From: Candidatus Omnitrophota bacterium
GTDB taxonomy: Bacteria; Omnitrophota; Omnitrophia; Omnitrophales; JACROU01
DNA: 64,000 bases
Direction of reading: 5' to 3'
Assembly (NCBI GenBank): GCA_029261035.1
Contig: JAJDCD010000005.1
Coordinates: 27,516 to 91,515, forward strand
The notes under the pieces were generated by a model. That model did not search any database, had not been told where the DNA came from, and saw nothing but the letters and a program-made list of their open reading frames with translations. This document shows positions 812 through 34,331 of this stretch, one piece after another. Both the position numbers and the translations under genes were made by a program. Each line of letters starts with the position of its first letter. The first letter of the stretch is position 1.

Positions 812-844
812 AAAGCATTAGGTACATTGAGTACCTAGTGCTTT
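812..844. other. Stable 14-bp hairpin (aaagcattaggtac-attga-gtacctagtgcttt) with no U-tract.
   Basis: This is a perfect inverted repeat with one G.T pair. It lies in convergent intergenic DNA. Confidence 0.4.
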
Positions 845-903
845 AATTCGTAATGTGATCGTCACATGTATGCCAATCCGTTGGTGATAAAACAATAGAA
901 ATG

Positions 904-946
904 AAAAAAGGGTGACGGTCACTTTGTTTGACTGTCACCCTTTTTT
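904..946. terminator. Bidirectional rho-independent terminator.
   Basis: The element is A6-gggtgacggtc-loop-gactgtcaccc-T6. The 11-bp stem is flanked by an A-run and a T-run. It lies between the convergent cupredoxin (+) gene and the membrane-protein (-) gene. Confidence 0.75.
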
Positions 947-992
947 ATTGGTGCTAATTAAATTGTTTTCTGAAAAGAAAGAACAAAGACAC

Positions 993-1020
993 TGGATCCC
1001 GGATCAAGTCCGGGATGACA
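993..1020 (+). repeat. REP-like palindromic element, copy 1 (ctggatcccgga-tcaag-tccgggatgaca).
   Basis: The consensus CTGGATCCCCGA-N5-9-TCGGGGATGACA is shared with four other intergenic copies in the window. Confidence 0.7.
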
Positions 1021-1083
1021 ATGTTTTTTTAAAGGCAAGGGATGCTTTTCCTATCTGCTCCGCGCTAAACGCTATCCGCTAAT

Positions 1084-16007: not shown

Positions 16008-17588
16008 ATGTTTAATAAAGCATTCCTTACTTTTTCTATCGTAGTTGTTTCTTTCTTTTTAAATTCAAGTGGTGTACAAGCTCAAGCAGTAAGTGAGATT
16101 GAAATTATTTTTGATGCATCTCGGAGTATGAATGATGCTCAAGCTGGAACCAGTAAATTGATGGCGGCTAAACAGGCTTTAAGTACTGTGGCGAGTCAAA
16201 TTCAGGCCGGAAGCAATGTGGGACTTCGTGTTTTTGGTAAAACTCCAGTAAGAGGAAATGTGAAAGACTCCTGTGTGGATTCAAAATTAGTTATTCCGAT
16301 TCAGCCATTCCAGAGTATAGCGATGATTAGCCAAGTAAATGCACTTCAAGCACATGGCCAAACGGCAATCGGATACTCGCTGAAATTAGCAGCGAATGAT
16401 TTTACTGCTGGAGCTAAAAAATCCATTATCTTAATCAGTGACGGGGAAGAAAGTTGTGGAATGAATCCCATTGATGTTATTGCGGATTTAAAGGCGCAAG
16501 GAATTGATATTGTGATTCATACCGTAGGGTTTGATGTGAACCCAAAAGCGCGGGCTCAATTGCAGCAAATTTCTGAATTTACAGGTGGAACTTATGCGGA
16601 TGCGAGAAATGCAGGGGAGTTGAAGGCATCCCTGACTCAAGTGGTTCAAAATGCAGATCTTTTATTGAAGCCACAGCGTGGAGAGGGTGAAAATATTTTG
16701 TCAGCATCGAGTGGAACTCGTATTGTGTTTTCGAGTACAGAGGAATTCGCAAAGTTAATTGACGGTAAAGAAGATCAAACAGGGCCCTTGTACAATGCTC
16801 AGGAAGTTGTGTTCTCATTTAAAGATAATAATCCTATTCTTCTAGAGAAGTTTGCAATTCCAGTTTTTAAACAAGGTAGTTACAATGTTGGAACTGTTGA
16901 ACTTTTCGGATCTTATTCTGATCCTGATTCAGGATATTTTCCGGTCGCTTTAATTCAAGTTAAAAACCGTGTATTTTATGAAAATGTATATCAAGAATTT
17001 ACAATAGATCCGCCCAAAGCTCTAAAATATTTAAAAGCTGTTATGGGTTATGGATCTTCAGGTAGCCAAGCTTACTCTTCTGAATGGAAGGCGTATGGGG
17101 AGTTTTTAGAAGAAGATGAATTTAAGAAATATATGAAAGCAGAAGAGAAGAAAGAGAAGAATATTTTAGCTGCTAATAATGGCGGGCAATTGATAGCGGC
17201 AAGTAATGTGAACTTTAAATACCTTATTGACGGCACAGATCGTTCTCATGGACAGTCTGTCTCGATTCAACCAATACAGGAGGGTATTTTCGGATTTAAA
17301 GATGGGAAAACTGCTCTTATTAATAAAATGGCTATACCTATATTGGAATCTTCTGATAAGAATGTAAAGACAGTTGAGATCCTGGTATCTACATCTAGCC
17401 CAACAAGTGGTTATGAAAGTGTCGGTACATTTGAAACGATGAATCTTGTTTTTGCTGGGAACCCATATCAGGAATTTGTATTTGAAAAACCAGTTAAAGC
17501 AAAATATTTAAAAATTGTTGTTAAGGCAACTCATGGATTGTACTACTGCAATTTTCACGAATTACAAGCCTTTGGAACAGTTGAGTAA
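16008..17588 (+). CDS. Secreted von Willebrand factor type A (vWA) domain protein with two tandem C-terminal ~110-aa repeats.
   Basis: A signal peptide is present. The MIDAS motif D-x-S-x-S (DASRS) is present, with ...ILISDGEE downstream. The C-terminal repeats are FAIPVFKQGSYNVGTVELFGSYSDPDSGY... and MAIPILESSDKNVKTVEILVSTSSPTSGY... An RBS GGAGG is present. Confidence 0.75.
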   Translation: MFNKAFLTFSIVVVSFFLNSSGVQAQAVSEIEIIFDASRSMNDAQAGTSKLMAAKQALSTVASQIQAGSNVGLRVFGKTPVRGNVKDSCVDSKLVIPIQPFQSIAMISQVNALQAHGQTAIGYSLKLAANDFTAGAKKSIILISDGEESCGMNPIDVIADLKAQGIDIVIHTVGFDVNPKARAQLQQISEFTGGTYADARNAGELKASLTQVVQNADLLLKPQRGEGENILSASSGTRIVFSSTEEFAKLIDGKEDQTGPLYNAQEVVFSFKDNNPILLEKFAIPVFKQGSYNVGTVELFGSYSDPDSGYFPVALIQVKNRVFYENVYQEFTIDPPKALKYLKAVMGYGSSGSQAYSSEWKAYGEFLEEDEFKKYMKAEEKKEKNILAANNGGQLIAASNVNFKYLIDGTDRSHGQSVSIQPIQEGIFGFKDGKTALINKMAIPILESSDKNVKTVEILVSTSSPTSGYESVGTFETMNLVFAGNPYQEFVFEKPVKAKYLKIVVKATHGLYYCNFHELQAFGTVE

Positions 17589-18634: not shown

Positions 18635-21600
18635 ATGAATAGTTATTCTGGTCAACCTAATTCGTGTCAGGTTGAAAGGAATGTTTTGTTAAAAAAGGTT
18701 GGAAGCCTTTTGGTATTCTTTTTCTTCCTAATAAACTCTGTTTTTTATCCCATTTCAGAAGTTTGGTCTAATCCAACTTTTAATTCCATTGTGATCCCAT
18801 CTGTTAATAAAATAGAAATTCCAAAAGAGTTTGGAATTGTTGAAGAAGTTTACCAATCGCCTACAGCCACAGAAAATAATCCTCTTATTATTTATCTTCA
18901 AGATGCTCACTGTATTTATGAAGCACAATTCAATATTAAAAATTTAATTCAATCCTTTCAAGAAGAGCATAATCTTAATTTGGTGGCGCTGGAAGGGGGC
19001 TCAGGTGCTTTAGAGACAGATTTGTTTCGTTCTTTTCCAGTTCAGGAAATTAAAGAAAAAGTTATTGATGGTTTTGTCCGAAAGGGTGAGCTGTCAGGAG
19101 CAGAGTATGCGGCTATTGTTAACCCCAAAGAGTCTACTTATTGGGGCATCGAAGATATGGATATCTATTATGAAAATAAGGAAGCATTTTTAAAGTCTAT
19201 TGAAGTTAAGGAACGCGTTGATATGAAGTTGTTGGATATTCGTAGATGGCTCAAAAAGAAAAAAGATGAAATCTACTCAAAAAGATTAAAAGAAAATTTT
19301 GATAAATCAGAGGATTATGAGACGGAAAGAATTAATTTATTGGAATACATCAAGTATTTGATTGCTTCGGCAAAATCATTGAATTTGGATTTATCTTCTT
19401 ACGTTGCTATGGCTGAGTTGCTTCAAGGGATGGAAAGAGAAAAAACAATTGATTTCACTCAGGCTCAGAGCGACGCGTTCAATATGGAACGGGATGTGGA
19501 ACGTTTCTATAAGAACAGTTCCGGTGCTGAAGCTCAAGAGGCGCTTAAAGATTTTCAGTCTAAAATTACAGACTTTAAAGAAAGAAAAGTTGAAAAAGAT
19601 CAATTTTATCCTTGGTTGTGGTCTTACGCTAAGAGAATGGGTGTTGTTTCTGAAGGGGAGGGAAAAAGCCAATATCGAAATCTATCTCATTATATCAATC
19701 ATTTAAATCAATTAGAACAAATTCAGGGAGAGGAACTATTTAAAGAACTAGAGCAAATCGATCGAGAAATTAAAAGTCAGTTATTTGAAAATGAAGAGCA
19801 AAAAATACTAGATCAACACTTCTATCACTTAAAAATATTAGAAAATTTGTCAAAGCTTGAGTTGACGCGTGAAGAGCTTGCATATTATCAGTCGAATAAA
19901 GAGCTATTTGAAGAACAGCAATTTTGGGAGTTTATGGATCGTAATATGGGCCGTTTAGAATTGGATGACTTATTTCAACCTCATATGAAATTTTATGATG
20001 CGGCTCTCAAAAGAGATCAGGTGCTTTATGATAATTTAATGAGTCTTATGGATAAACAAAATAAAAAATTTGCTATGGTTGTTACAGGAGGGTTTCATAC
20101 CGGTGGAATTAAAGAAAAATTTAAAAAAGAAGGGTTTTCATACCTTGTTTTAACTCCTCGAATCACACACTTTGATGATGAGACACCTTATTGGGATGTG
20201 ATGAAAGGAAAGGTTTCTTATGCTAAGTACAAGCAGACGACAACTCTTTCCCCAGAGCTTGCGCTGAATGTTTATAAAGAAGCAGCAGCTCAAGAAATAT
20301 CAAATCAATTAGCTCAAGCGATTACTGATGACTTGCCTTCTGTTTTAAATCAATGGAAACAAAATATTTTGCAACGTCAAGCGCAAGGTGAAAATCAGGT
20401 GCAGATTGTGGATGGATTGATTAACCAGTTTGTTTTGGGGTTGAAAGAGGTTGGTTTAGAGGGAAGTGCTGCGGAACAACTTCAAAAGGCGCTTAATGCT
20501 TATTTTCAAGGACAATTGGAAGTGGCGGTGAAAAGCATTGAAGCTTTAGAGAACCTGTTGAGCAGCCCCGATATAGAAGGTGTTTCTCCTATAGATGTGC
20601 AGAATGTGCTCCAGCAAAATCAGCAAACCAGAGCGGAGGTGCAAAACCTAGAATCCGCAAATGCATTTTCATTAGGAGATGTTAAGGCAGCTTATACAGA
20701 AATCGAAACAGAAATGCAGCTTCTTGGTTTGGATTTTCAAGATTTCAATCTGTTTACGGCTCTTTTGCCACGGGGCGAAGGTACACGGGAAGAGTTTGCA
20801 ATCAAAGTAACTCGTTATTTAGAATCGGTTGAGAACCCTGAAGTTTCTCTAACAGAATCGGAAAGAAGCGAGAATTTAAAATTAGATAATTTTTTCAAGG
20901 GGTCATTTAAAAGGGGTATTTTTTCAGATGAAATTCCTGCATCGAAAATCAGTGCTGCTAGAGTTGTTTTGGACAAAATTAAAACATTGCTTCCTTCAGC
21001 GCAGGATGTTTTCGAAAAAGAAGAAGCAGAGTTTCAAGAGAAAAAAGGGCAAGTTTTAACATATTTGCAGTCTGTGAGGTATTCGCCTGGGATCGCTTTA
21101 GAGGAGCTGTTGAATTTCCGCTCAATTACCAATGAGACAGGCCAGCCTGTTTTTCCAGGTGGCCTGTGGGATTATGAAGACCTGGACCGAATGGACGAGG
21201 ATGCGGACGTCGTAGCAGCTATAGAAGCAGCCTCTAGTCTGTATAGGGAAGAAGAAGGGCGTGTCGCTTTAGAACAAGAACTTTTAGCTGAGCGAAAAAG
21301 GCAAGAGAAGGAAACAGCGATACGTAGTTTTTATGCAGATATTTTAAATGCAAATCAAAGTGACTTTGATGCTTTGATAACGGAATTACAAGGCAGTGAG
21401 AAAGCGCTTGAAAAGCGTTTAAGTCCTTTAGGAATTGCAGTGGCTATCACGTCCAGTACGGGAGAGACGGAATTTAAGGAGTTGAGTCTTTGGGATTTTG
21501 ATACTTTGGATATTTTGGAACGGCCGGACATACAAGCTCTTAAACTAAGTTCGGAACAGAAAATAAGAACGGAAATAGAGCGAAGGAAAAGAGTGGAGGA

Positions 21601-24600
21601 AGCAGCAAAAGATGCACAGAGAATCAATGACTTTAATCGACGTGCTGCTTTAGCAGCTGACTATTTCAAAAATTTAACATTGGATCCGCAAAAAGAACTG
21701 CAAGAAATTTTGGATGGAATTTATCAGCTTAAAGATAAAAATGGAGCGTCTGTTGTTAGTCTTTGGTCTCTAGACTCTGTCGAAGATCATTCCGATGTTC
21801 AATCGGCAAAAGCATCTGCGATTGACAGATTAACTCAAGCTAAACAAGAGTGGGATCGGATCAATCAGCAATATGCAGAAAGTAGCCAATTTGTAGATCG
21901 AGCAACGAAAGTAAGTCAGTTGACACAATATTATGATGGGTTATTAGGTCAGTATCAGCTGGGTATGGATATTGAACAAATGGCATCTCCCTTCCAAGCA
22001 ACCTACGTTACAGTCAATGAAGCTGGTGAGCAAGTTCAGAGCAGAGTTTTGAATGGGTGGACGGATTCGGATTGGAGTATTTCTGAGTTAGATGAAGTAA
22101 AGGCTTTGGCTGAAAAAGTAAAAGCACAGCTTGAAACTAGAAAAACAGAATTAGAAATTTTAAATCAGCAGTATGCTGAGAACCAGGAGTTTATATCCTA
22201 TGCCAACCGTATTCAAAAGCAGATTCGATTTTATAACAATTTAAGTTATGAACCCGGTATGGATGTATTTGAAGCTGCTGATATTTATCGTAACTCTGAA
22301 CTGAGACCACTTTTTAGTATTTGGGAAGATGACTCATCACAAAAAGACGTGCTTGTACTTAAAGCTAGAAATAATGCTTTAGATCGTTTGGCTAGGCAAG
22401 AAGCAGCATCTGAGGAATCGTTGCTTCCGCAAGGTTTTTATGCTGTGCATTCAGCCACAGCAGCGCAAAAAATAGCTTCTATTTTAGATGCAGCTGTATC
22501 GAACAATCCGAGGCTAGCCACGCGAATACAAATCAATAAAGATAATGGTGCGGTTAAGGATATTAAACTCGATAATTCCTTCTTAGATGTGGAACAAGAT
22601 GGAAACCCTCTCACCAGAATTTCTTCTTCGTTAGAGGATTGGTCCGGTATTACTCCTGGAGAAAATTTCAAAGGGTTAAGTTTGGACGACTCTAAAGTTC
22701 TGTTGGAGATAGATAATCTGTTATTTTCGATTGATGGCGAAGGAAATTATGAGGAAGTGAGCGCTCAATCATTGGGAGTGAGGGAGATTTATGAAGAGTT
22801 AGAGGAAGATTTGGAGCTTTTAAAAATAACACCGCGGCAATTTCAAAGCTTAGCTCACGATCTTAAAGCAGCATCCAAGAATAGGAGGAATTATATAGCG
22901 ACGGTACAAAAGGTTGTGGATACGCTCCTTTCTGGAAATGAGCATGTTTATTCTGCAGATGAACAGTCTGTCAAAGATGTGATTGATCGTTATTTTAGAG
23001 CAGGGCTTAAGAAAAAAGGAATTTTTTCTAGAGCTATTCCTTCACAAAATATTAAAGCGGCTGAAGATGTGTTGAGCCGTATAGCAAGCTTTGTTTCTAG
23101 AGGAAAGCGGCTTCAGACCTCTTTAGCTAAAAAAATCAGTGAAAAATATAATGTAGGGCAGGTAGATGCTGAACGTCGAGCCAGTGAATTGGTGAATACT
23201 CTTTTTGATCGAGGAGAAAGCGCTCAGGATCTGATGCAAGTCGCGAACGAATTAATAAAAAATATAAGAATTAATCAGCCAGGAGTAAAAAACAAGGGGC
23301 GTCTTGATTGGTTAGAGTTTTTTGAGTTGCTTGAGGTTTCTCCGGATATTACGGCCCAACAACTTTTGACGCTTATTCAAAATTTTGCCGAAAAGAACAT
23401 TCCAGCAGGCCCTTTTCTTGATTTTGCCCAGGCTTCTGAAAGTTCTAGTCAAGACTCAGAACGGTCCATAGTAGATCAAGATATAGGCCGAATCGTTGCT
23501 CCATTTAAGGACTATGGCATTAAAAATCTGCGTCATTTTGTTAATGCATTTAGTGTTGAGGGGGAAGAAGGAGCATCTTATTTTAGTTTATTTAGTAGAA
23601 ATAATGGTCCTCAAGAGCTGGACTTTATTAAACGTTTAGGAAGGATTTTTCCATCGGCCATTAACACTCAGGACGTAGTAGATCGCTTTACAGATGCAGG
23701 GTTAATTCAAGAAGATATCGGTGTGTATTTATCAGATGCTCTTGCGCAGGGAGAGCAGCTAGGTCGATTAACTCAGCTTAGCCGTATCCTTATCGAATTT
23801 AGCATTGACGAGGAGAATGAAGATGCCGTTAGAGCATTCCTTTTATCCATTCAGTCAAAATTACCTGATTCTTTTTCCGGTATCCGAGAGGTTGTGAATA
23901 AAATTGTTGTTCAAACGAGTATTAACCCGATTGAAGTGCAGCCCTTTTATGAATTTAATCAAGGAATTGCTTTCTCTGATGAGCACAAAAAACTAGTGCT
24001 GGCTTCCGTTTTATTACGTCAAGCTCAGGTTTCTGAAGCTGACGTGTTCAATTTACTCAATACAAACAAATCACTTTCTGAATTAGGCATTGAAGTGAGT
24101 AATCAGGTTGCTAAAGAGTTTTATGTTACAGCTTTTGATGATCGAGGTTTTTCACAGATTAGGAAGCGTTTAGGAGATCTTGTAAATAAAATTAATGCTT
24201 CAAACCCTCAAAAGCGTTTTGCGTACCGCCAATCTGGATCCGATTTGCTTAAGACACGAAAGGACCAACTTTTGATGGCTATTCGCCGAGCAAAAATTAA
24301 GGAAGAACAGCGTGTCGAGGCAGAAGAGAGGAGAAAGGTATTCGAAAGACAGGCAGCGGAACAACGGGTTCTCGAGTCACCGGTCCGTATTAAGCAATCT
24401 CTTATAAAGGGTGAGCCAATCATTATCGACTCGAATAATCCTATTACGTTTGAATTGGCAGGACAATCAGATTTTTCACTCTCGTTGTTGCCTTTATCGA
24501 CAGGGGAAATTGGAATTTATCTTGTAAATCAGGCCGGTCAGTCTTTTCCTTTAAATATAGGAACGAATAATGTGCTTAGAGAAGGAGAAGACATCTCTAT

Positions 24601-27600
24601 TGGAAGAAGCGAGTTAGAATCTTTTAATTTGCCAGGAATAGTGAGGGTTTCAGGGAGTCATCTGAAACTACGGGTGGATGCGAAAGCAGATGGGTCTGGG
24701 AAACACATTTCCATTACCGACACTTCCAAAAATGGGACAGTAATTCAAGTAGATGGAACTCTTGGGTCGTTGGGAGACAACTTGTCTTCGGCAATAGCAG
24801 ATCGTGTGAGAAAGGCAAATATAGATGCGGTAGTTTTGGACTTGATAGCCGATAAGCCGACAGGGTTCCCTGTGGGCGTGAATATGCAGGAGTATAGTCG
24901 TATAGAAGGCATTTTGTCTGAATTGGGAGGCAGTCAGCTGAGAAGAAATGAAGCCGCTTTAAAAAGGGTTCTGCGGGCTGCGGTTCAAAAGATGTCTTTA
25001 CCTACATTAGAAGAATCGCTGGAACAGGGAAGGAACCTTAGAGTTGATGGTCAGTTTGATCAGGCGATTGATTACTATTTAAATTTACCGGTACAGCAGC
25101 AACAAAATGTGAATGTACAGCTTGGATTATTTCATTCTTATTTGGGAGCGAAGCAGTTAGAAAATGCGGCCTCTGTTTTAGAGGATCTTAATATCAGCAG
25201 GACGTTAAGTGATTATGAAAAAGAAGCGCGCCGAGGACAATTAGAAAGATTTAATACAGAAGGTATTCCTTATATGCTTTTAGATGCCGCAATTGGAGCA
25301 GAATATGTGGATGTCAAAAAAGCCTATCGAAAGCTCATGATTAAATATCATCCGGATCGATACGGCAATGAATCTCAAGAAATTCAGGATGCGGTTAAAA
25401 ACATTTCTGCTGCATTAAACGGAGCGCATACCTCCATAGAAATAACAGCTAAATCTTTAGGGCAATTAGGAACATTAGATAAGATTCAGGTGAGAAGTGA
25501 TGAAAGTTTAAATACGTTGATCCCATTTATTCAAAGGACGCGAGATAACAGCTTAAAAAGAAGATTAGATTCAATTCTATCGAAACCTCCGAATCAAAGA
25601 GATGTTCGAGAAGTCAACCAGCTGATTCAGCAGATTGCTAGAGGTCTTAAAGTACATCCATCTCGACTGTTTAAGAGTCCGGTACAGCCACAGCGCTCGA
25701 GAGGGGCGGCTGTTTTGAGCCGTACCCGAAGAGCTCCTGAAAGAGCCCCTCGTTTGGTACCTAGTGGAAGAAGAGAACAGGTTCCTGTAAAGCGTCAACG
25801 AAGAAGACGAGTCGCGCCTCCTCAAACTCCACAAGTCAGAATTCAAGATAAGTCCCTTTATGATCAAGAAGCACAAGCAATTCAAAGAGCACTTCAAGAG
25901 GCAGAGAGACGGGCTGCATTCTCAAGAGAGCAGCAACGTGTGAGACGAGAAGCGCGGATTGCTGCAATTGAAGAACAACTTAAAAAGCCTTTGGTGGAAC
26001 GTTTGGAAACAGTTTCATTAGAGGAGGTCGAGTCTATTTTGCAAGGATCTATTGCATCTGGAATACAAGGGCGCCGTAATTATTTTAAGGATTCGGTTAC
26101 GGGAGATTATTACTTACTTAAAGAGATGACTTTTGCAACATTTGGAGATGTTCTTCATTCTGAGGTTTCTGATTTAGTTGGTTTTGATAGTGTGCGTGCA
26201 GAATATGTGGAGAATTTTAATGGCAAGACTGGTTTGCTAACAAAGATTGTTAGAGATTCTCAAACTTTGGGTGATTTTACGCGATTTTCTAATCATGGAA
26301 ATATAGACTCTAGAGGTGTTGTTCAAGATTTAAAAAAAGCAAGCGTTGTTGATTTACTTTTACTAGATGAGGATCGTTTTGCGAATAACTTCTTAGTGAC
26401 GGTGTCTGTTGATGGTAAGGCCCGACTTCATTCCATAGATCACCCTCCTTCTGAAATTGATTCTTACACAAAATATTTAGAGACGCTTGGACTAACAGAG
26501 CAAAATGTAGGTCGGGGTAGAAGTTTTGCTTCTGATCTTGAAGCTGTAGGTCGTTTAGTAGATCTTCAGAAGATCGTGGATGATATTACCAAACAGAGTC
26601 AGTTTGGTAATAATGCTAAAAAAGAAATAGCTCGAAGATTTCAAATTATTTCTCAGAATTTGTTTAATAGTGGAAACCCAGAAGATCAGAAAATGGCTTC
26701 GAAAATTGGAGGGAAGTTAAGAGATTATTTAATTCTCCAAGCATATGTGAAAAATCAGTTGAGTCAGGCAGTCCAAGTGAAAGGAGCTAATGGAGTGACC
26801 CTTCGAGGATCTCGATATTTTGGACTGAATGACCAAGACATTGATTTTAACAGAGATTTATTACCCGTCATTACAGAGTTAAAAGAAAAGTTAACGGATG
26901 AGAAAATAGACTCTATTTTAGAATCTGCTAATATTCCGCAAGAAAAGAGAAATGCAGTAAGAGAAACAATGCGTCTACGTCGAGATTTGATTGAAGAGGT
27001 TTTGAGAGAATATTATTCTCGTCCAAGAGAGATTGATGCCTCTATCGGTTATTTAACACCAGATGATGTTACGAATGAGCTGCTTATTACAGACCGTGTT
27101 TTTCAACGAGCAGTTGAAAAAGAGGTGTTGCCCGTATTAGAAGAGATCCGGGATACCGCTTTATCTGAAGGGAAGGTTGAAGTTTTAGTTGAAAGAGCAA
27201 AGTTAAGCAAGGCTTTAGTTCAAGTGGCTGTAAAGTTAAAACGTCTTACAGCAGATTTTACTACTCGGGTAGGAGAAACGCCTCGCCCCGATGAAAATGT
27301 AGTGAAGTCCAATCAAGGGAAAGATTTGATTGATTTAAGAATTTATCAGTTGCTCTTCTTTGTGGAGCAGTTCAACCAAATTGTGGATACTGCTGGAAAA
27401 ACGCCTATACAGAAGTTAATTCTTGGAAGGTCTACAGCAGAAATAGCTCCTTTGCTTCGTTTATCACCACAAAAAGGAGTTGTGAACAAAGACATCTATG
27501 CTGCAATTAAGTCCTTGTCTGTGTTAAGTCGTCCAGCTCCAACGAATCCCAATTTTAATAACTTAATGCAGAGACGAGAAAATAAATTAGAGTTAGATGC

Positions 27601-29932
27601 TAAAGGTTTGGTGTCTCGTCTATTGAGTTTAAAGGATTTTAAGGAACCTAGCTTTTCTGAGGAGTCGGGGGCCGTACAGGCGGCATCTTTAGGAAATGTT
27701 CTGCCTAAAAAAGAAAATATATTAGATGTGATGACACCTGAGCGTGTAGAGCAAGCGATTAACGCCTTGAATTATTCAACGGAAGTAAGGCCAACGGATT
27801 CTTTGGGAAACCCTGGAGCTTTAATTAATATTAAGGGAGCTCGCCGTTTATTTTCTATTGGGGATTTGCATGGACGTTATGACAATTTGGAAAAAGCACT
27901 TCTGTCTCGTGATGGGTTTGGGTTAACGATGCTTGACGCTCTCAATAGAGGAGATACGCATCTCGTTATATTGGGTGATGCGATTCATGCAGGTTCAGCA
28001 GATACATCGGATGAAGCTTACTTAGATTCTTTTCGTTTGATGATGGCGATTATGAATTTAAAAGCACAATTTCCAAATTCGGTTCATTATATTTTAGGAA
28101 ACCATGATGCTTCTAATATTGGGGATGTTGAAAAGAATCGTCTGCAAAATTCCACTTTTAAACAAGGAGCTGTTCAGAGTTTTAAGTTTGAAGTGCTTGT
28201 AAAAAAAGAGTTTGGATCAGAACGCTTAGAACAAGTGAAACGGTTTTTTGAGAAATCTCCTGCGGCTTCTAAAGTGTCCTATAGAGATCAAGCGGTTCTT
28301 TTGGTTCATGCAGGTTTGACAAGCGATGTCCAAACAGAAGAGGCTTTCGTTAATTTGTTTGTCAGTAGTCAGGGTAAAAGGAGTTATGATTCAAAAAAAT
28401 TGCAAGGGGTACTGACGAATCGAAAGTTTGATCCAACTCTCATTCGTAGTGGAGCTGAGAAAGTGGGAGTTGATTTAGTCGTATCAGGGCATAACCCTCC
28501 GTTTCATCGTTCTGCAAAAAGGCAAGGGTTACAACCTATTCAGGATTGGAATCGTTTTGCGGCCCATGTGGATAACAAACAAATTGTGTTGGATGCACAA
28601 GATGGTAATGCGGGGCACTTTGACCTTGATTTGGGACGTCCCATACCACAAGATGTTTCTTATTTAGAAGCGGTGGATGGCAACAGTGCTTTTGTGTCTT
28701 ACCAGCCTGTTGCTGTGGAAGGTAATTCTCTTGGAACAGCGGTTCTGGATAAAGGAGCAACAGAAGATGTTGAGCTAAGACTTAAAAATGCATTTGAATT
28801 CAGTCGAGTATTGGCTGGGGTATCGTTTGCAACCACGAATAAAGCAACGTTAAACCAGCAGTTTCGAGACTTTATCTCCTTTGCATTAAATATTGATCCA
28901 GTAAAGAGGACATCTTTTTTAAATCAGTTAAAACAAAACTTAAAAACTACTTTTGAACAATTGGTAAAACCAAATGAATTAGGCGCTTTAACTCAAAAAC
29001 TAGCAAATCGTCAAGATTTTACAGATGCTTCTCTTAGGGAATTCTTTGTGGATGAATTTGGAACAGACGGAATTTTAGAAGGGGAGCAATTAGGAAGTTT
29101 TAGAGATCAAGTGAATCAGGTTTTAGGAGTAACTCGAGGAGTTGCTGGAGAAAGAACATCGGCTCAAGTAGGAAGTGTAAATGTACAGCAAGGGCTAAGA
29201 AGTTTTGATGCGAGTATTACCGCTTTGATGCAAGAATCAGAATTTCCAGCAACATTTGATGCTGATTTGTCCTTAGCGTTAGATGCGATTGAAAGTGAAT
29301 TTTCAACAAGGTTAGGCCTTTTAGAGCAGGATTTTGGAGATCAACTAAAACAATCAACTCAGATTCAGTTTGATGGAGATGCTTTCTTGGCAACAGCACA
29401 AGATTTGACTAATATTCAAGAAACATTAAAGGGAATAGGTAACAAAGGAAAGCTTATTGTTTATCATTTACCATCCCAGACCGCAGCTATTAATGATGTG
29501 TATGCTCAACTTTCTGCTGAGGATAAAACAGCTCTTTCTAAAATTAAAAAAGTGCGTTCTCCTGTGATTCATGTTTCAGATTTAGACCGAGCAACAAAAA
29601 AAGCCGTTAGAGAAAATCAAGGCACAGCAATTTTGTTTGGTGAAGGGAAGTTAAAGGCGCTTCTCAGGGCAAAAGATTTTAATAAAATGCAAACTAATGT
29701 GGATACTCTTGATAAATATTCTCGTTTGATCTCTATACTGAACCAGTTTGTTTTAACACTATCTCGTATTCCTGAAGATGATACAACGGGAATGAGGCAA
29801 CGTCTTATTGAGGAATTTAAGGATTTAGGGTTTAAAGAAGAAAATGGAATTATCACTATTGATTTGAGTCGATTAGTTCAACGGGTTACAGCAGAATACA
29901 AAGCTGTGGCAGCTGCTAAAAAGGCAGCTTAA
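18635..29932 (+). CDS. Giant secreted multidomain protein (3765 aa). It has the N-terminal family domain, an FHA domain, a DnaJ J-domain, an Arg-rich NLS-like tract, a calcineurin-like PPP metallophosphatase domain, the C-terminal family module, and an -AA end.
   Basis: The N-domain is at 18780-20240 (YLQDAHC, ALEGGSG, VVTGGFHTGGI, TPRIT). The FHA domain is at ~24450-24770 (ISIGRSE...VSGSHLKLRV...ITDTSKNGTVIQVDG). The J-domain is at ~25275-25440 (KKAYRKLMIKYHPDRYG). The basic tract is at 25690-25835 (KRQRRRRVAPP). The phosphatase is at ~27840-28520 (GDLHG, GDAIHAG, GNHD, VHAG, GHNP). The protein ends KKAA. Confidence 0.85.
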   Translation: MNSYSGQPNSCQVERNVLLKKVGSLLVFFFFLINSVFYPISEVWSNPTFNSIVIPSVNKIEIPKEFGIVEEVYQSPTATENNPLIIYLQDAHCIYEAQFNIKNLIQSFQEEHNLNLVALEGGSGALETDLFRSFPVQEIKEKVIDGFVRKGELSGAEYAAIVNPKESTYWGIEDMDIYYENKEAFLKSIEVKERVDMKLLDIRRWLKKKKDEIYSKRLKENFDKSEDYETERINLLEYIKYLIASAKSLNLDLSSYVAMAELLQGMEREKTIDFTQAQSDAFNMERDVERFYKNSSGAEAQEALKDFQSKITDFKERKVEKDQFYPWLWSYAKRMGVVSEGEGKSQYRNLSHYINHLNQLEQIQGEELFKELEQIDREIKSQLFENEEQKILDQHFYHLKILENLSKLELTREELAYYQSNKELFEEQQFWEFMDRNMGRLELDDLFQPHMKFYDAALKRDQVLYDNLMSLMDKQNKKFAMVVTGGFHTGGIKEKFKKEGFSYLVLTPRITHFDDETPYWDVMKGKVSYAKYKQTTTLSPELALNVYKEAAAQEISNQLAQAITDDLPSVLNQWKQNILQRQAQGENQVQIVDGLINQFVLGLKEVGLEGSAAEQLQKALNAYFQGQLEVAVKSIEALENLLSSPDIEGVSPIDVQNVLQQNQQTRAEVQNLESANAFSLGDVKAAYTEIETEMQLLGLDFQDFNLFTALLPRGEGTREEFAIKVTRYLESVENPEVSLTESERSENLKLDNFFKGSFKRGIFSDEIPASKISAARVVLDKIKTLLPSAQDVFEKEEAEFQEKKGQVLTYLQSVRYSPGIALEELLNFRSITNETGQPVFPGGLWDYEDLDRMDEDADVVAAIEAASSLYREEEGRVALEQELLAERKRQEKETAIRSFYADILNANQSDFDALITELQGSEKALEKRLSPLGIAVAITSSTGETEFKELSLWDFDTLDILERPDIQALKLSSEQKIRTEIERRKRVEEAAKDAQRINDFNRRAALAADYFKNLTLDPQKELQEILDGIYQLKDKNGASVVSLWSLDSVEDHSDVQSAKASAIDRLTQAKQEWDRINQQYAESSQFVDRATKVSQLTQYYDGLLGQYQLGMDIEQMASPFQATYVTVNEAGEQVQSRVLNGWTDSDWSISELDEVKALAEKVKAQLETRKTELEILNQQYAENQEFISYANRIQKQIRFYNNLSYEPGMDVFEAADIYRNSELRPLFSIWEDDSSQKDVLVLKARNNALDRLARQEAASEESLLPQGFYAVHSATAAQKIASILDAAVSNNPRLATRIQINKDNGAVKDIKLDNSFLDVEQDGNPLTRISSSLEDWSGITPGENFKGLSLDDSKVLLEIDNLLFSIDGEGNYEEVSAQSLGVREIYEELEEDLELLKITPRQFQSLAHDLKAASKNRRNYIATVQKVVDTLLSGNEHVYSADEQSVKDVIDRYFRAGLKKKGIFSRAIPSQNIKAAEDVLSRIASFVSRGKRLQTSLAKKISEKYNVGQVDAERRASELVNTLFDRGESAQDLMQVANELIKNIRINQPGVKNKGRLDWLEFFELLEVSPDITAQQLLTLIQNFAEKNIPAGPFLDFAQASESSSQDSERSIVDQDIGRIVAPFKDYGIKNLRHFVNAFSVEGEEGASYFSLFSRNNGPQELDFIKRLGRIFPSAINTQDVVDRFTDAGLIQEDIGVYLSDALAQGEQLGRLTQLSRILIEFSIDEENEDAVRAFLLSIQSKLPDSFSGIREVVNKIVVQTSINPIEVQPFYEFNQGIAFSDEHKKLVLASVLLRQAQVSEADVFNLLNTNKSLSELGIEVSNQVAKEFYVTAFDDRGFSQIRKRLGDLVNKINASNPQKRFAYRQSGSDLLKTRKDQLLMAIRRAKIKEEQRVEAEERRKVFERQAAEQRVLESPVRIKQSLIKGEPIIIDSNNPITFELAGQSDFSLSLLPLSTGEIGIYLVNQAGQSFPLNIGTNNVLREGEDISIGRSELESFNLPGIVRVSGSHLKLRVDAKADGSGKHISITDTSKNGTVIQVDGTLGSLGDNLSSAIADRVRKANIDAVVLDLIADKPTGFPVGVNMQEYSRIEGILSELGGSQLRRNEAALKRVLRAAVQKMSLPTLEESLEQGRNLRVDGQFDQAIDYYLNLPVQQQQNVNVQLGLFHSYLGAKQLENAASVLEDLNISRTLSDYEKEARRGQLERFNTEGIPYMLLDAAIGAEYVDVKKAYRKLMIKYHPDRYGNESQEIQDAVKNISAALNGAHTSIEITAKSLGQLGTLDKIQVRSDESLNTLIPFIQRTRDNSLKRRLDSILSKPPNQRDVREVNQLIQQIARGLKVHPSRLFKSPVQPQRSRGAAVLSRTRRAPERAPRLVPSGRREQVPVKRQRRRRVAPPQTPQVRIQDKSLYDQEAQAIQRALQEAERRAAFSREQQRVRREARIAAIEEQLKKPLVERLETVSLEEVESILQGSIASGIQGRRNYFKDSVTGDYYLLKEMTFATFGDVLHSEVSDLVGFDSVRAEYVENFNGKTGLLTKIVRDSQTLGDFTRFSNHGNIDSRGVVQDLKKASVVDLLLLDEDRFANNFLVTVSVDGKARLHSIDHPPSEIDSYTKYLETLGLTEQNVGRGRSFASDLEAVGRLVDLQKIVDDITKQSQFGNNAKKEIARRFQIISQNLFNSGNPEDQKMASKIGGKLRDYLILQAYVKNQLSQAVQVKGANGVTLRGSRYFGLNDQDIDFNRDLLPVITELKEKLTDEKIDSILESANIPQEKRNAVRETMRLRRDLIEEVLREYYSRPREIDASIGYLTPDDVTNELLITDRVFQRAVEKEVLPVLEEIRDTALSEGKVEVLVERAKLSKALVQVAVKLKRLTADFTTRVGETPRPDENVVKSNQGKDLIDLRIYQLLFFVEQFNQIVDTAGKTPIQKLILGRSTAEIAPLLRLSPQKGVVNKDIYAAIKSLSVLSRPAPTNPNFNNLMQRRENKLELDAKGLVSRLLSLKDFKEPSFSEESGAVQAASLGNVLPKKENILDVMTPERVEQAINALNYSTEVRPTDSLGNPGALINIKGARRLFSIGDLHGRYDNLEKALLSRDGFGLTMLDALNRGDTHLVILGDAIHAGSADTSDEAYLDSFRLMMAIMNLKAQFPNSVHYILGNHDASNIGDVEKNRLQNSTFKQGAVQSFKFEVLVKKEFGSERLEQVKRFFEKSPAASKVSYRDQAVLLVHAGLTSDVQTEEAFVNLFVSSQGKRSYDSKKLQGVLTNRKFDPTLIRSGAEKVGVDLVVSGHNPPFHRSAKRQGLQPIQDWNRFAAHVDNKQIVLDAQDGNAGHFDLDLGRPIPQDVSYLEAVDGNSAFVSYQPVAVEGNSLGTAVLDKGATEDVELRLKNAFEFSRVLAGVSFATTNKATLNQQFRDFISFALNIDPVKRTSFLNQLKQNLKTTFEQLVKPNELGALTQKLANRQDFTDASLREFFVDEFGTDGILEGEQLGSFRDQVNQVLGVTRGVAGERTSAQVGSVNVQQGLRSFDASITALMQESEFPATFDADLSLALDAIESEFSTRLGLLEQDFGDQLKQSTQIQFDGDAFLATAQDLTNIQETLKGIGNKGKLIVYHLPSQTAAINDVYAQLSAEDKTALSKIKKVRSPVIHVSDLDRATKKAVRENQGTAILFGEGKLKALLRAKDFNKMQTNVDTLDKYSRLISILNQFVLTLSRIPEDDTTGMRQRLIEEFKDLGFKEENGIITIDLSRLVQRVTAEYKAVAAAKKAA

Positions 29933-30152: not shown

Positions 30153-33100
30153 ATGAAACGGATTAGAATTGCTTTCATATATTTTACTTTGCTGACGTTT
30201 TGCAGTACTTCTATGCCTCAACATTCTTTTGCTGAAGCTGCAAAAGAAAATGTTTCTATCAAATCATTCCTGGATATCTCACCTGATTTAGCTCTTGTGG
30301 ATGAGGTTTATTATCCTAAAAACTCTAAAAACAAAGACAAATTCCTTATTTTCATTCAAGATCATCATGCGTCCGTACAGATGCAACGTCAAATAGCTCA
30401 GTTGATTCAGTGGTATGTTAAAGAAAAGCAAATTCCTTTGGTGGGTTATGAGGGAAATCGAGGTTTAATTCAGACGGATAAAGTTTTTTGGGTGCCCAGC
30501 CCAGAACTTAATTTAGAAGTGTCAGAGTACTTTCTCAAACAGCTTCAAATATCAGGCCCAGAATATGCGCATATCAATAAACAAAAAGAATTTGATTTAG
30601 TGGGTGTTGAAGATATGGGTTTGTATCGAAAAAATTTAAAATTGTTTCAAGATGCTTTCCGAATACGTTCTGAAGCAGAAGGTATTCTTAAGGTGCTAGA
30701 AAAAGAGATTGAAAGAAGTATTCGCTCTAGAGCTTCAGACTCCTTGATTAAGATTTTTGCAATGATGAAACAATATCGAGATAACCCAAGAGAAATGTAT
30801 GCGTACTTAGAGTTTCTCAGCAAGAGAGACCCTGAACAAGTCGCGATGTTAAAACAAATTCAATTGCTTCAAGAATTAGATCAATCCCAAAAAAAATGGG
30901 ATCCGTTAAAGCTTGTAAATGAGATGGGTGGATTTTTGCTTCAAAATAATATCAATGTAGATTCCGAACAATTGAAAATAGAAATTTCTCAACCTTCAGC
31001 AAATACAAAAAAAGCAATTCGTAATATGTCAGATGGAGAGAGGTCTGCTTTTCCTCTAATAAACTCTTGGTCGAATTATATCGAAAAAAGAGATCAGTTG
31101 GATGTTTCGGAGCTTTATAAAGAGCTGAGTATTTTAGAAAAAAACGTTGTTAAGCGTCTAGCACAAGCAGAAGGTTTGTACCCATTGTTTGAAGCTTGGT
31201 TTCATGTAGAGGCTTTGAAGAGTATTTTGTATTTGTCTGCAACGAGACAGCAAGTAGAGGAGTTCTGGACTCAACCGCTGTCTTATAAACAAAAATATTT
31301 TACTGACACATTAGCACCTTATTCAAAAGGGATTGAAACACAGTTAAAGAATAAAAATTTAGATTCCTTGATGCGATTTCCAAACCAATTTTATAGAACC
31401 GCTTTGGATCGAGATCTTGTTATGGCTCGTCAAATTATGAAGTACCTAGAAGATCAGAACCGAATGCTTTTTGTGTCTGGAGGTTTTCATAGACGAGGGG
31501 TGACTCAAGTGCTTCGAAGAAACAAAATTCCCTATGCGGTATTAACACCTCAAGTAGACACGGATCAAAAGATTCAAGACAAAATTTATATGCAACGTGT
31601 TTTAAATGCTCCATGGATTGAGACGGGTCAGTTTGGCCGAGTTCAAAGTTTTAGACAGCCGACTTTGTTTAATCAGCTGCCTTCCAAAGCGCGTGTTCTG
31701 GTGGACCAAGTGGCCATGCGTATAGCTCGTCAAGTAAAGCGGTTGGAAGTGACTGTTCCTCAAATTCAAGCGATGCTTCAGGACGACATGGATCGTTTTT
31801 TAAATAGAGGTTTTCAACCTGTGTCTGCGCAAAGCCTAGGGGATACGACCGTCTTGGACACGAGTTTGCTTTTTCCGCAAGACCTTATTGAAGATCAATA
31901 TGATGATAGTCCTGTATTACTTCTTTTTAAGGCTAGAATGGGAAACACTCCTGAACAGACTCCTGAATATGAATTTGCAACGGATGTGGATACTCAAATA
32001 ACAAGATCTATGGAACCTGGCGTTAGGCAGGTTCTAAACCAAATCCAGCAAATCAAAAATAAATTGGATACGATAAATAAAGAGATTTTTTATGGTGTGC
32101 AAATACATGTAATGAGAAATTCATCAAAATCAATTTCGTTGAGGGAGGAGCAGAAGCAGCTTATCTTAGAAGTTGATTATCGACTTTTTGTAAATAAAAA
32201 TATTTTATTTCCAGCAATCATAGAAATAATCATGGGTAATCATCTGAGGGAAGTTCCCAACTTACAATGGGTTAAACTGTATGCAGTATTTGAAGCTTTA
32301 AAATGGTTGGCAAATTCTCAGCCGGATTCAGATGTGCAAGCTTGGCTGCTTAGAAGTTTAGCCCATGATGATGTTCAATATTATCGGTTTGCTCAATTCA
32401 TGACAGATAACTGGCGAACTTTTGACCCAAATCAAGAGCGAGAAATTCATTTTTCGGATTTGGATCAGCAGCCGCTGCTTGTTGGGATTGCTAACGAAAT
32501 TTGGCCCAAGAGTAAGGAGCAAGAAGCTGAGATTCAACAGCTGAATCCAGAAGCCGCAAGTTTTGACTTGGAACAGTTTAAAATTTTATTTGGAGATCTT
32601 GATCAAGTAACAGAAGCTCTAGAACATATTCACAGCTATCGGGAAATTAAACAGGTTGAAGTAACTATCGATAACCATGTAGCAAATATGGACGATTTAA
32701 CAAAAGTTCAATTGTATGAGATTATAGACCGTATATTGGCTACTGAAGCTCGAGATCGGGAACATCGCCTTCATTTCGTTCGTTACTTGATGAATTTTTT
32801 AATTGTTAATCAGAGGTATGATTTAGCGACACATATTATGTTTTTAATTAAAGATACTCAGGATCCCATGGATACAGTTATTCGTGTGTATGAAGGGATG
32901 GATTTAGGTGCATTAATGGGCGTTCAGTTAGAAGTACATGATGTAGCAAGTTTTCTGTCTTATCTTCATGAAGAAGGTGTGGTCTTTGGAGCGGAACGTT
33001 ATACCGTGGAAGATATTGCTTTTTCTGCTGCCGATGCATTTCCAGAACTTGAGGGTGTTAGTAACGATCAAATTAATGAAGTTTACGAAACGTTTGAAGC

Positions 33101-34331
33101 TATTGTGTATGGGGCAAGTTTAGGTCGAAATGTTTTGGAATGGGCTATTGATTATAACCCTGATTTGATACAACAGAATTATGATTTAGACGATGAAATT
33201 GATCGAAGAGTCAGAGATTTTCAAATGGTCCTTTTGGGGCTGAGGAATGAAGGTGGGGCGCTTAAGGAATTTGAAAAAAGAGTAGATCTTGCTGCGAGGA
33301 CATTAAAGGGACTTATTAATAACGCTTTGGATGCTATCGAAATGCTGGGAGAGTCTGGTTCTGTTAGTATATCATCACGCCTTGGAGGTGGTAATTTGCG
33401 CGTGAAGGTTAAAGATACAGGAGAGGGTGTGCCTCAGGGTGAAAGAGAAAGATTGTTTGTAGAGGATATCGAATCCAGAAAGTTAGGTTATGCTGATGGA
33501 AGTATGAGAGGAGGGATGGGGGTGTTTTTAAAAGCTTCTAGAATGAATTTATTGCGTTTGGGGGGGGATATTAATATTTTTCCTCAGAGTGAAGAAAGAG
33601 GATCTCTTTTTTCATTTTCTTTGCCTCTGTTAGAGCGTTCTAAAGAACAGCGCAGTGAGGCAAAAAGTTTGGGGCTTCAAAATCAGAAAGTCAAAGAAAG
33701 GTATCAAGAAGTTGTTGTGGACATCAATCATGTCAGCGTATTGCCTTTTTTCTTAGAACGTTTAATTTTATTGTTGGAGCATTCAAAGTACAAGAGGGTT
33801 ACTTTTTTGATTCGTAGTAAGCAAGATGAGGGTGCTGTGAAGCAAGAGTTGAAACATTTAGGGATTTCAAGCCGTGCATTGAACAGAGTTCGTTTTAAAG
33901 TAAACCCCTTATTAACACCTCAGGATTTAGAAGAACTTAACCATTATTTAGAAGAGGTACAAAGTGATTTATCTTCAAAAAATAAGAAGTTTAGAAAAAA
34001 AGAAAAAGTATTAGATGTAGCAATGATTGCGAATTATCAAATACTTTTTAATTTAGATACGAAGCAATTTGTTACGCTTGCGAATGATCGAGTTGCGCGA
34101 GGTCAACAAGTTCAGTGGTTTCAGGCAACGAGCAGAGAAGAGGAGATGGGTGCTGTTTGGACTTTGTTTTCTTCAGCTTGGGAATTGCTTTCAGATAAAC
34201 AAACGAACAAAACGACCCGAAAGGATTGGAGAACGGGTATTTATTTAGTCAATTTTAGCTATTTAACAGAATCGATGGAGCGGTGGTTAAATCAGTACCG
34301 ACAAGAGCAAATTATACGCATTGCCGCATAA
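30153..34331 (+). CDS. Giant secreted protein (1392 aa) with a divergent N-terminal family domain and a C-terminal GHKL/histidine-kinase-like ATPase domain.
   Basis: A signal peptide is present. The N-domain motifs are FIQDHHA, GYEGN, FYRTALDRDLVM, VSGGFHRRGV and LTPQ (30270-31610). The HATPase_c boxes are at ~33300-33640 (N box LINNALDAIE, G1 VKDTGEGV, G2 GGMGVFL, GGDINIF). SxxSLG occurs 3 times. The protein ends RIAA. Confidence 0.8.
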   Translation: MKRIRIAFIYFTLLTFCSTSMPQHSFAEAAKENVSIKSFLDISPDLALVDEVYYPKNSKNKDKFLIFIQDHHASVQMQRQIAQLIQWYVKEKQIPLVGYEGNRGLIQTDKVFWVPSPELNLEVSEYFLKQLQISGPEYAHINKQKEFDLVGVEDMGLYRKNLKLFQDAFRIRSEAEGILKVLEKEIERSIRSRASDSLIKIFAMMKQYRDNPREMYAYLEFLSKRDPEQVAMLKQIQLLQELDQSQKKWDPLKLVNEMGGFLLQNNINVDSEQLKIEISQPSANTKKAIRNMSDGERSAFPLINSWSNYIEKRDQLDVSELYKELSILEKNVVKRLAQAEGLYPLFEAWFHVEALKSILYLSATRQQVEEFWTQPLSYKQKYFTDTLAPYSKGIETQLKNKNLDSLMRFPNQFYRTALDRDLVMARQIMKYLEDQNRMLFVSGGFHRRGVTQVLRRNKIPYAVLTPQVDTDQKIQDKIYMQRVLNAPWIETGQFGRVQSFRQPTLFNQLPSKARVLVDQVAMRIARQVKRLEVTVPQIQAMLQDDMDRFLNRGFQPVSAQSLGDTTVLDTSLLFPQDLIEDQYDDSPVLLLFKARMGNTPEQTPEYEFATDVDTQITRSMEPGVRQVLNQIQQIKNKLDTINKEIFYGVQIHVMRNSSKSISLREEQKQLILEVDYRLFVNKNILFPAIIEIIMGNHLREVPNLQWVKLYAVFEALKWLANSQPDSDVQAWLLRSLAHDDVQYYRFAQFMTDNWRTFDPNQEREIHFSDLDQQPLLVGIANEIWPKSKEQEAEIQQLNPEAASFDLEQFKILFGDLDQVTEALEHIHSYREIKQVEVTIDNHVANMDDLTKVQLYEIIDRILATEARDREHRLHFVRYLMNFLIVNQRYDLATHIMFLIKDTQDPMDTVIRVYEGMDLGALMGVQLEVHDVASFLSYLHEEGVVFGAERYTVEDIAFSAADAFPELEGVSNDQINEVYETFEAIVYGASLGRNVLEWAIDYNPDLIQQNYDLDDEIDRRVRDFQMVLLGLRNEGGALKEFEKRVDLAARTLKGLINNALDAIEMLGESGSVSISSRLGGGNLRVKVKDTGEGVPQGERERLFVEDIESRKLGYADGSMRGGMGVFLKASRMNLLRLGGDINIFPQSEERGSLFSFSLPLLERSKEQRSEAKSLGLQNQKVKERYQEVVVDINHVSVLPFFLERLILLLEHSKYKRVTFLIRSKQDEGAVKQELKHLGISSRALNRVRFKVNPLLTPQDLEELNHYLEEVQSDLSSKNKKFRKKEKVLDVAMIANYQILFNLDTKQFVTLANDRVARGQQVQWFQATSREEEMGAVWTLFSSAWELLSDKQTNKTTRKDWRTGIYLVNFSYLTESMERWLNQYRQEQIIRIAA

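Follow-up and report, generated by a model that had tools for sequence, protein, structure and literature searches.

A lineage-specific family of near-cysteine-free, probably exported mosaic proteins in Omnitrophota and Auribacterota with a TIKI-like head and recurring FHA and phosphatase cargo

We analysed a stretch of 64,000 nucleotides (the window) from a Candidatus Omnitrophota bacterium (GCA_029261035.1, contig JAJDCD010000005.1, forward-strand positions 27,516 to 91,515), with the focus on one very large gene whose product of 3765 amino acids (aa) we call g3765. This protein is shown here to be a paralogue within a lineage-specific Omnitrophota/Auribacterota family of very probably exported, near-cysteine-free mosaic proteins built on a fixed chassis, a family that was previously undescribed. 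A sequence-only reading of the same DNA had singled out four elements in g3765 (an FHA-like segment, a J-domain, an Arg/Pro-rich tract resembling a nuclear localisation signal and a PPP-type phosphatase) and had interpreted them as a eukaryote-targeting effector; the family context, including the TIKI-like N-terminal module (N-module), was absent from it. When the sequence was read again, all four elements were found inside one 3765-aa open reading frame (ORF), each where it had been placed. Our best reading, to which we assign a probability of roughly 0.55, is that g3765 is an exported effector-type mosaic protein of a predatory or parasitic bacterium. The layout of the gene is as follows (window positions, all on the + strand).

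18635-29932, +: complete ORF of g3765, 3765 aa, uninterrupted in the ORF scan; the public protein collection contains an identical entry
18635-18769, +: signal-peptide-like segment; a basic n-region, a hydrophobic core that begins within residues 16-26 (KKVGSLLVFFFFLINSVFYPI), then SEVWS
18755-20314, +: family-defining N-module, residues ~41-560, supported by a 28-member alignment and an AlphaFold2 model
20555-24334, +: spacer of ~1260 aa, residues ~641-1900, without recognisable domain or relatives
24575-24751, +: probable FHA core, residues 1981-2039; G-R, S-x-x-H and N-G of the FHA signature are present; negative for Pfam FHA
25271-25414, +: J-domain, residues 2213-2260, by Pfam DnaJ, with basic helix II and HPD at 2239-2241
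25652-25864, +: Arg/Pro-rich linker, residues 2340-2410, by composition; contains KRQRRRRV
26060-26449, +: orphan region, residues 2476-2605, with unverified PI3/4-kinase-like motifs read from the sequence
27773-28669, +: divergent PPP-like metallophosphatase, residues ~3047-3345, by the Pfam core at 3075-3287 and a subfamily alignment
28691-29929, +: C-terminal domain of ~410 aa, common to the 4416-12032 paralogue and to a relative outside the window (P0017), ending …YKAVAAAKKAA-COOH

Five large ORFs of the window have their N-terminal ~500-630 residues in common (BLAST). In this N-module g3765 is 52% identical to a 2538-aa paralogue over 632 aa, and the other pairs are 21-27% identical. The C-terminal domains of the same two proteins are 31% identical over 422 aa (BLAST); this domain has no Pfam match, and a profile search of the PDB returned noise only. 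The paralogues and one related protein are located as follows.

4416-12032, +: paralogue of 2538 aa with the same N-module and the same C-terminal domain but a different middle
12431-15775, +: related exported protein of 1114 aa, cysteine-free and without the N-module; its C-terminal ~230 aa and -AA tail are as in the 1392-aa paralogue, and it may be part of the same system
30153-34331, +: paralogue of 1392 aa, N-module with HATPase_c cargo
34528-42351, +: paralogue of 2607 aa, N-module with no recognisable cargo domain
51202-58125, +: paralogue of 2307 aa, N-module with no recognisable cargo domain

Outside the window, at least 30 more large ORFs in Omnitrophota/Auribacterota assemblies share the features of the family, of which there are four: a Sec signal peptide, the ~500-aa N-module, a near-total absence of Cys and a C-terminal -[AS]A. 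From N- to C-terminus the chassis runs from signal peptide and N-module through a long spacer that is not conserved and through enzyme cargo that varies to the C-terminal region with its -[AS]A end. In a distribution scan with one genome per species, 16 N-module loci were found in Candidatus Omnitrophota, Candidatus Auribacter/Auribacterota, UBP3 and other metagenome-assembled genomes (MAGs). Several such loci frequently share one genome, and conservation among the loci is confined to the N-module. The shortest of the N-module ORFs (n=23, 13 of them complete) has 547 aa and runs off a contig end; the longest exceeds 3900 aa. The cargo of relatives includes GATase, methyltransferase, ClpB-like AAA+, RNase T, HAD and PolyA_pol. 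The phosphatase of g3765 recurs on at least eight other N-module proteins, FHA and phosphatase co-occur in at least eight proteins, and one protein of 7186 aa (P0005) carries the N-module and, spaced in tandem, five copies of this phosphatase domain. P0017 (2396 aa) has head, FHA, phosphatase and C-terminal domain in the same order as g3765. We conclude that the FHA-phosphatase pair on the chassis is a conserved functional unit. At two of the loci the surroundings were also read. In L001 (ENA contig k141_2170788) an 894-aa member lies between called genes of 9,251 and 16,533 residues, and the 9,251-residue gene likewise starts with the N-module. Compared with window positions 21-1707, L002 (GCA_975849895.1) keeps the order of a CarboxypepD_reg-like gene, a Urate_ox_N-like membrane protein and a family giant, and its assembly is without the trehalose genes that the window has at 1902-4179.

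The N-module probably belongs to the TIKI/TraB/ChaN/erythromycin-esterase superfamily. An AlphaFold2 model built from an eight-sequence alignment (mean predicted local distance difference test score, pLDDT, 78.6; predicted template-modelling score, pTM, 0.71) has an alpha/beta core of the TIKI/ChaN/erythromycin-esterase/TraB type, interrupted by a ~300-aa helical insert, and shows the alpha/beta fold with a parallel sheet core common to the superfamily. Across the 28-member alignment H92, Q98, E120, G171 and G486 are invariant, and D90, E157, E173, R460 and H488 are near-invariant. The 2His/2Glu motif of the superfamily consists of E-x-H, a Glu 28 residues on and a distal His, as in RRSP (E3900/H3902/E3930/H4030), and the same 28-residue spacing separates H85 and E113 of Bcr135 (PMC6254334). 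In the N-module this motif is present in the linear sequence of the 28 members as D90-x-H92, E120 exactly 28 residues after the His, and H488, with Asp in place of the first Glu. Six of the 28 relatives match PF04187 (ChaN, Tiki superfamily; best E 4e-4) and one matches PF01963 (TraB_PrgY_gumN; E 0.08), in both cases presumably below the Pfam cut-off. The N-module is potentially an active hydrolase.

Export of g3765 is very probable, and the claim that it is a secreted protein is supported, as far as export goes, by the N-terminal signal-type segment, the signal peptidase sites of its relatives and the depletion of Cys. By hydropathy scan the N-terminal segment is the sole transmembrane-like segment of g3765, and each giant likewise has a single N-terminal hydrophobic segment. 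The h-region of g3765, with ~19 residues, is long and anchor-like; the paralogues and relatives carry short, cleavable-type signal peptides with signal peptidase-type sites (xWA-A or SFS-Q), and all ORFs of the distribution scan start with a sequence of the signal-peptide type. g3765 has 2 Cys in 3765 residues, and the six large proteins of the window together have 5 Cys in 13,723 residues, compared with 58 Cys in 6,032 residues (~1%) in the other 19 ORFs. Window positions 60558-61657 contain genes for a DsbA-like and a MauE/DoxX protein; they make an oxidising periplasm plausible, in which the avoidance of Cys would be sensible for exported proteins. At the other end of the proteins, 22 family members have -[AS]A as their last two residues, preceded by an amphipathic stretch (as in …LKAQRALDISA or …YKAVAAAKKAA), compared with 6 of 129 non-giant phosphatase homologues. 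The ORFs ending at 12032, 15775, 29932, 34331, 42351 and 58125 and those of loci L005-L008, L010-L012, L017 and L019 are among them. The pattern suggests that the -[AS]A tail may be a C-terminal sorting or recognition signal.

We accept residues 1981-2039 as a divergent FHA core on the basis of motif and profile evidence. The signature residues G-R … S-x-x-H … N-G occur in the correct order and spacing, within IGR at 1989-1991, SGSH at 2006-2009 and TSKNGT at 2030-2035 (NG at 2033-2034; nucleotides 24593-24742). When the segment was compared with the PDB by phmmer, the FHA domain of CHFR came second (E 0.08), aligned through IGR, S-x-x-H and T-S-x-x-G-T, and was the sole FHA found by that search. 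A motif search found FHA-like motifs in eight phosphatase-bearing proteins, and one of them, P0017, passes Pfam FHA with an E of 1.8e-13. A profile (A6) was made from nine FHA segments of other phosphatase-bearing proteins, P0017 included and g3765 excluded. It matches the solved FHA domains of FhaA, EmbR, GarA, KAPP and Rad53 (best E 2.7e-13), the best of which are bacterial (FhaA, EmbR, GarA), and it aligns to the g3765 segment with an hhalign probability of 95% and an E of 3.5e-8 over 51 core columns. These columns correspond to the FHA core, and the C-terminal strands lie beyond the alignment. The sequence-only reading had named failure of the FHA profile to recover the segment as grounds for giving the FHA claim up, and on Pfam FHA the claim does fail; it stands by its signature motifs and by the family profile A6.

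The J-domain (KKAYRKLMIKYHPDR) was recovered by Pfam DnaJ (PF00226) with an E of 2e-7 and a score of 31.5 bits in the whole protein and 35.4 bits in a sub-fragment, above the cut-off of 27.8. Its best match in the PDB is the J-domain of Ydj1 (E 1.5e-5), to which it aligns with HPD at 2239-2241. A J-domain with HPD had been claimed, and with helix II basic and the HPD intact this was confirmed. No other family sequence examined has a J-domain. Neither the J-domain nor residues ~2270-3000 found a relative among 1.84 billion representatives or in a metagenome scan, and a metagenome search for orthologues of the FHA-J-orphan region gave generic J-domain matches only. A word-index homologue search with residues 1880-3370 gave no match by a method nearly blind for the family (with N-module profiles it recovered 3, then 2 proteins). 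The J-domain is a one-off addition to the chassis. The claim that the architecture has no parallel is accordingly narrowed: it holds for the J-domain and for residues ~2270-3000, which are unmatched, but not for the FHA and phosphatase, which sit on the same chassis in P0017, or for the phosphatase of the other N-module proteins. A foreign origin of the FHA-J segment was considered and not retained, as its GC content is only mildly raised (0.44 vs ~0.38), partly through Arg codons, and gives no evidence of it.

The Arg/Pro-rich tract with KRQRRRRV proved to be a real compositional feature. KRQRRRRV lies at residues 2386-2393 (nucleotides 25790-25813), and the surrounding 71 residues hold 16 Arg, 3 Lys and 10 Pro. 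KRQRRRR (2386-2392) satisfies the monopartite pattern K-[KR]-x-[KR], a pattern low in specificity, and residues 2340-2410 are, from their composition, probably a disordered linker. A 106-aa ORF runs antisense over the tract (25577-25897, - strand); most likely it is a side effect of the tract's codon composition and not a gene.

In the phosphatase, Pfam Metallophos matches residues 3075-3287 (E 4.7e-10, 40.7 bits, cut-off 21.5), a result upheld on a sub-fragment. The motifs are GDLHG (3076-3080), GDAIHAG (3114-3120), GNHD (3155-3158), VHAG (H3225) and GHNP (H3286), by which six metal ligands (D3077, H3079, D3115, N3156, H3225 and H3286) and the general-acid His (H3157) are kept. When residues 2170-3369 were searched against 1.84 billion representatives by HMMER, 282 matches were obtained at E<=1e-3; in the best 150 of these, the protein itself aside, the top-scoring stretch always lay in the phosphatase region. 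The closest relatives form two groups. One consists of stand-alone proteins, ~360-590 aa in length and with identities of up to 42%, of which the only named one is a 'metallophosphoesterase family protein' of a bacterium, Candidatus Brocadiia; the other comprises many very large mosaic proteins, several with the same N-module. The alignment defines a subfamily signature, RPxD..G.PG – GDLHGRY – GDAIHP – GNHDxAH – VHAG – LWxR – GHT, and the whole subfamily carries GDAIHP at motif II. Against the PDB the subfamily profile (A7) matches BSU1 (5e-14), a Shewanella phosphatase (2e-9), PP1 (~1e-8), PP5 and calcineurin; a further match, FAP15 (7n6g), gives no PPP assignment by its name alone, and the other solved relatives are all PPP enzymes. 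The g3765 sequence taken singly reaches solved PPPs only marginally (E 0.03). The earlier label 'PPP-type' is accordingly fair at the level of the superfamily: the Pfam match, the placement of all motifs and the PPP relatives uphold a phosphatase, and what departs from the claim is the Arg of the canonical GDxVDRG.

Between linker and phosphatase lies an orphan region of ~600 aa, so that the cargo of g3765 runs in the order FHA, J-domain, Arg/Pro-rich linker, orphan region, phosphatase. Within it, residues 2476-2605 contain GIQGRRNYFKD…YYLLKE, DEDRFANNFLV (VVDLLLLDEDRFANNFLV) and HSIDH, which recall the glycine-rich loop, the catalytic loop and the DFG-equivalent of type II PI4-kinase-like enzymes. 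These motifs are unique among all sequences compared. Pfam (on the undivided fragment), phmmer against the PDB and the representative search all gave no support to a kinase reading, and the AlphaFold2 single-sequence model of the region was unusable (pLDDT 36). An atypical kinase at 2476-2605 is not claimed here.

How might such a protein work? We envisage that g3765 would be exported by the Sec route and then displayed on, or transferred into, a partner cell (host or prey). There the FHA module would dock it on phosphothreonine proteins, the phosphatase would strip Ser/Thr (possibly Tyr) phosphates from the docked proteins, and the J-domain would recruit the Hsp70/DnaK of that compartment; the N-module may process g3765 itself or a target, which is conjecture. 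Because J-domains need ATP-loaded Hsp70, the site at which the cargo acts would be the cytoplasm of another cell and not the producer's periplasm. Omnitrophota have been proposed to be predatory or parasitic and to carry large mosaic ORFs (PMC10066038; bioRxiv 10.1101/2023.11.21.568195), and the one member of the lineage that has been studied is a predator which attaches to other cells in a methanogenic culture (PMC10066038). We infer that action inside another cell fits this proposed lifestyle and these mosaic ORFs.

Several observations weigh against this reading. No secretion-system genes were seen in the window, so that passage beyond the periplasm is unsupported. The N-module of g3765 has no Pfam match, its relatives are 22-54% identical, and a Foldseek search of the model against the PDB gave nothing significant (best Ere matches E 0.4-1), because the ~300-residue helical insert dominates the model. 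Pfam FHA (PF00498) gave no match in the whole protein at E<=1 or in residues 1880-2080 at E<=10. For the J-domain, purifying selection is not demonstrable because the middle of the protein is without an orthologue. In the phosphatase, motif II reads GDAIHAG instead of GDxVDRG, with the phosphate-binding Arg missing, and at three positions that hardly vary within its subfamily g3765 has a different residue (P->A3119, H->N3161 and W->T3261).

A bolder extension of the effector reading, which we regard as rather unlikely, would make signal peptide, TIKI-like head and -[AS]A tail a new delivery chassis by which predatory or parasitic Omnitrophota/Auribacterota supply the cytoplasm of prey or host cells with exchangeable enzymes of the cytoplasmic type; the head would be the hydrolase that does the processing, and the tail would mark the protein for sorting. 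The cargo would then comprise FHA-guided PPP phosphatases, the J-domain, ClpB-like AAA+, nucleotidyltransferase and RNase T modules. g3765 would be the first intercellular bacterial effector in which a phosphothreonine reader is joined with both a phosphatase and an Hsp70 recruiter, and perhaps also with an atypical kinase (2476-2605).

Could the protein instead act in or on its producer, anchored by its N-terminal segment as a membrane or envelope signalling scaffold that recognises and removes the producer's Ser/Thr phosphorylation and engages the producer's DnaK? FHA, J, PPP, AAA+, HATPase_c, GATase and methyltransferase modules are classic cytoplasmic, often ATP-dependent ones, and bacteria commonly use FHA, phosphatase and Hanks-kinase modules to signal within their own cells. 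The anchor-like h-region of ~19 residues and the lack of secretion machinery nearby point the same way. We nevertheless find this doubtful: the basic residues before the hydrophobic segment and the cleavable A-x-A-like sites of relatives place the bulk of the protein outside, the extreme depletion of Cys is specific to the giants and typical of exported rather than cytoplasmic proteins, and several divergent copies per genome with shuffled cargo fit a conflict-type role better than housekeeping signalling. Distinctly unlikely, in our view, is a fast-evolving surface coat or adhesin whose enzyme-like modules are accreted passengers, decaying or purely binding. It would account for the middle 2700 residues, which are without an orthologue in the searches made, for a phosphatase that is off its subfamily at the three near-invariant positions and for an FHA too divergent for Pfam; large Omnitrophota ORFs have moreover been described as poorly conserved and possibly adhesive (PMC10066038). 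Decay is however hard to square with the state of the modules, in which all six metal ligands and the general-acid His, the HPD with basic helix II, and all five FHA signature residues are intact. Many family members also retain the phosphatase, in some cases in more than one copy, and Pfam finds no adhesin-type domains in g3765.

An effector for a eukaryotic host, which would enter the nucleus by KRQRRRR, hijack Hsp70 and dephosphorylate host phosphoproteins, is very unlikely. It is true that g3765 looks exported, that the solved proteins nearest to the phosphatase profile are eukaryotic (BSU1 at E 5e-14, PP1 at ~1e-8), that the best solved J-domain match is yeast Ydj1, that a basic run like a monopartite nuclear localisation signal is present, and that HopI1 is a precedent for a bacterial J-domain effector. 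The PDB is dominated by eukaryotic PPPs and J-domains, however, and its top matches say little about the target; the nearest phosphatase kin are stand-alone proteins, the named one bacterial, or large mosaics, several with the same N-module, and the A6 profile fits bacterial FHA domains best. The basic run sits inside a 71-aa Arg/Pro-rich linker, and motifs of this kind are low in specificity. The domain searches on the giants revealed no eukaryote-like domains (ankyrin, F-box, U-box etc.). The documented partner cells of the lineage come from a methanogenic culture, and 'eukaryot' occurs once in the main Omnitrophota survey (PMC10066038). With relatives in Omnitrophota/Auribacterota MAGs, bacterial kin for both FHA and phosphatase, and the basic tract in a linker, the eukaryote-targeting and nuclear-import part of the sequence-only reading is not upheld, and an exported effector-type protein of a predatory or parasitic bacterium is the reading we prefer.

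The rest of the window adds context. The genes around the giants are housekeeping ones (trehalose, polyamine, haem, EF-P, ClC channel), and at 48658-50607 HemD (uroporphyrinogen-III synthase) and HemE (uroporphyrinogen decarboxylase) are fused in one ORF. No tRNA genes were found in the window. Between giants, at 16008-17588, lies a gene for a signal-peptide protein with VWA and discoidin/Sad1-UNC-like domains, which may be an adhesion partner. Within g3765 the spacer gave sub-threshold noise only in Pfam and no match in paralogues or related loci, and a self-BLAST of it revealed no internal repeats.

Omnitrophota and their relatives are widespread, uncultured and probably predatory or parasitic nanobacteria, and hardly any function is established for their very large genes. 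One such gene is now part of a defined family, with a conserved, hydrolase-like head whose key residues are named, a tail that is likewise conserved, strong export signatures and a recurring FHA and phosphatase cargo. If the cargo acts in partner cells, these bacteria would interfere with the Ser/Thr phospho-signalling and the chaperones of their hosts or prey, and concrete domains are available for expression and assay; if it acts on the producer, the family would be an unusual case of cytoplasm-type, ATP-dependent modules on exported proteins.

The nearest described systems come from the same or a neighbouring lineage and are the large and giant ORFs of mosaic build in Omnitrophota (West-Roberts et al. 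2023, bioRxiv 10.1101/2023.11.21.568195; Seymour et al. 2023, PMC10066038). Like g3765 and its family they have signal-peptide N-termini, long stretches without domains, several copies per genome and scattered enzyme domains, including Ser/Thr phosphatases, HATPase_c, AAA and HAD. Unlike g3765, which has one hydrophobic segment, no adhesion domain and a TIKI-like head, they have many transmembrane helices or adhesion domains and are described with C39 or S8 peptidase N-termini; neither paper mentions a TIKI-like head, a J-domain or FHA. At 11.3 kb, g3765 is also below the >20 kb threshold set for a 'giant ORF' by Seymour et al. (PMC10066038). Its size and single hydrophobic segment place it outside that class.

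MARTX toxins resemble g3765 as very large exported mosaics with several enzyme modules meant for another cell. Type I secretion takes them out of the cell; g3765 instead starts with a Sec-type signal. Membership was ruled out, as Pfam finds no RTX repeats, cysteine protease domain (CPD) or other MARTX-type domain in it. One MARTX effector domain, RRSP, has the TIKI fold with 2His/2Glu in the arrangement E-x-H…(28 residues)…E…H (PMC6254334). The TIKI-like module is an exchangeable effector in MARTX and the conserved head in the g3765 family.

Among type III effectors, HopI1 of Pseudomonas syringae, with a C-terminal J-domain, engages host Hsp70 and is an established J-domain effector, and HopBA1 has an EreA/ChaN-like fold. 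They can be regarded as partial analogues of g3765: both are small type III substrates of a plant pathogen without FHA or phosphatase, and no type III system is in evidence for g3765. With the PPP phosphatases (PP1, BSU1, PP5, calcineurin and the Shewanella cold-active phosphatase) g3765 has GDxHG, GNH[DE] and the later His ligands in common, whereas its subfamily differs by GDAIH[PA] without the Arg and by the additional RPxD..G.PG lead-in and GNHDxAH signature. A comparable pairing is that of plant KAPP, in which a phosphothreonine reader is likewise fused to a protein phosphatase and whose FHA (1mzk) is among the PDB matches of the A6 profile; the KAPP phosphatase has the PP2C fold in a small cytoplasmic plant protein, whereas that of g3765 is PPP-like. 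Set beside these systems, the family chassis (TIKI-like head, avoidance of Cys and -[AS]A tail) is more notable than the domain mosaic itself.

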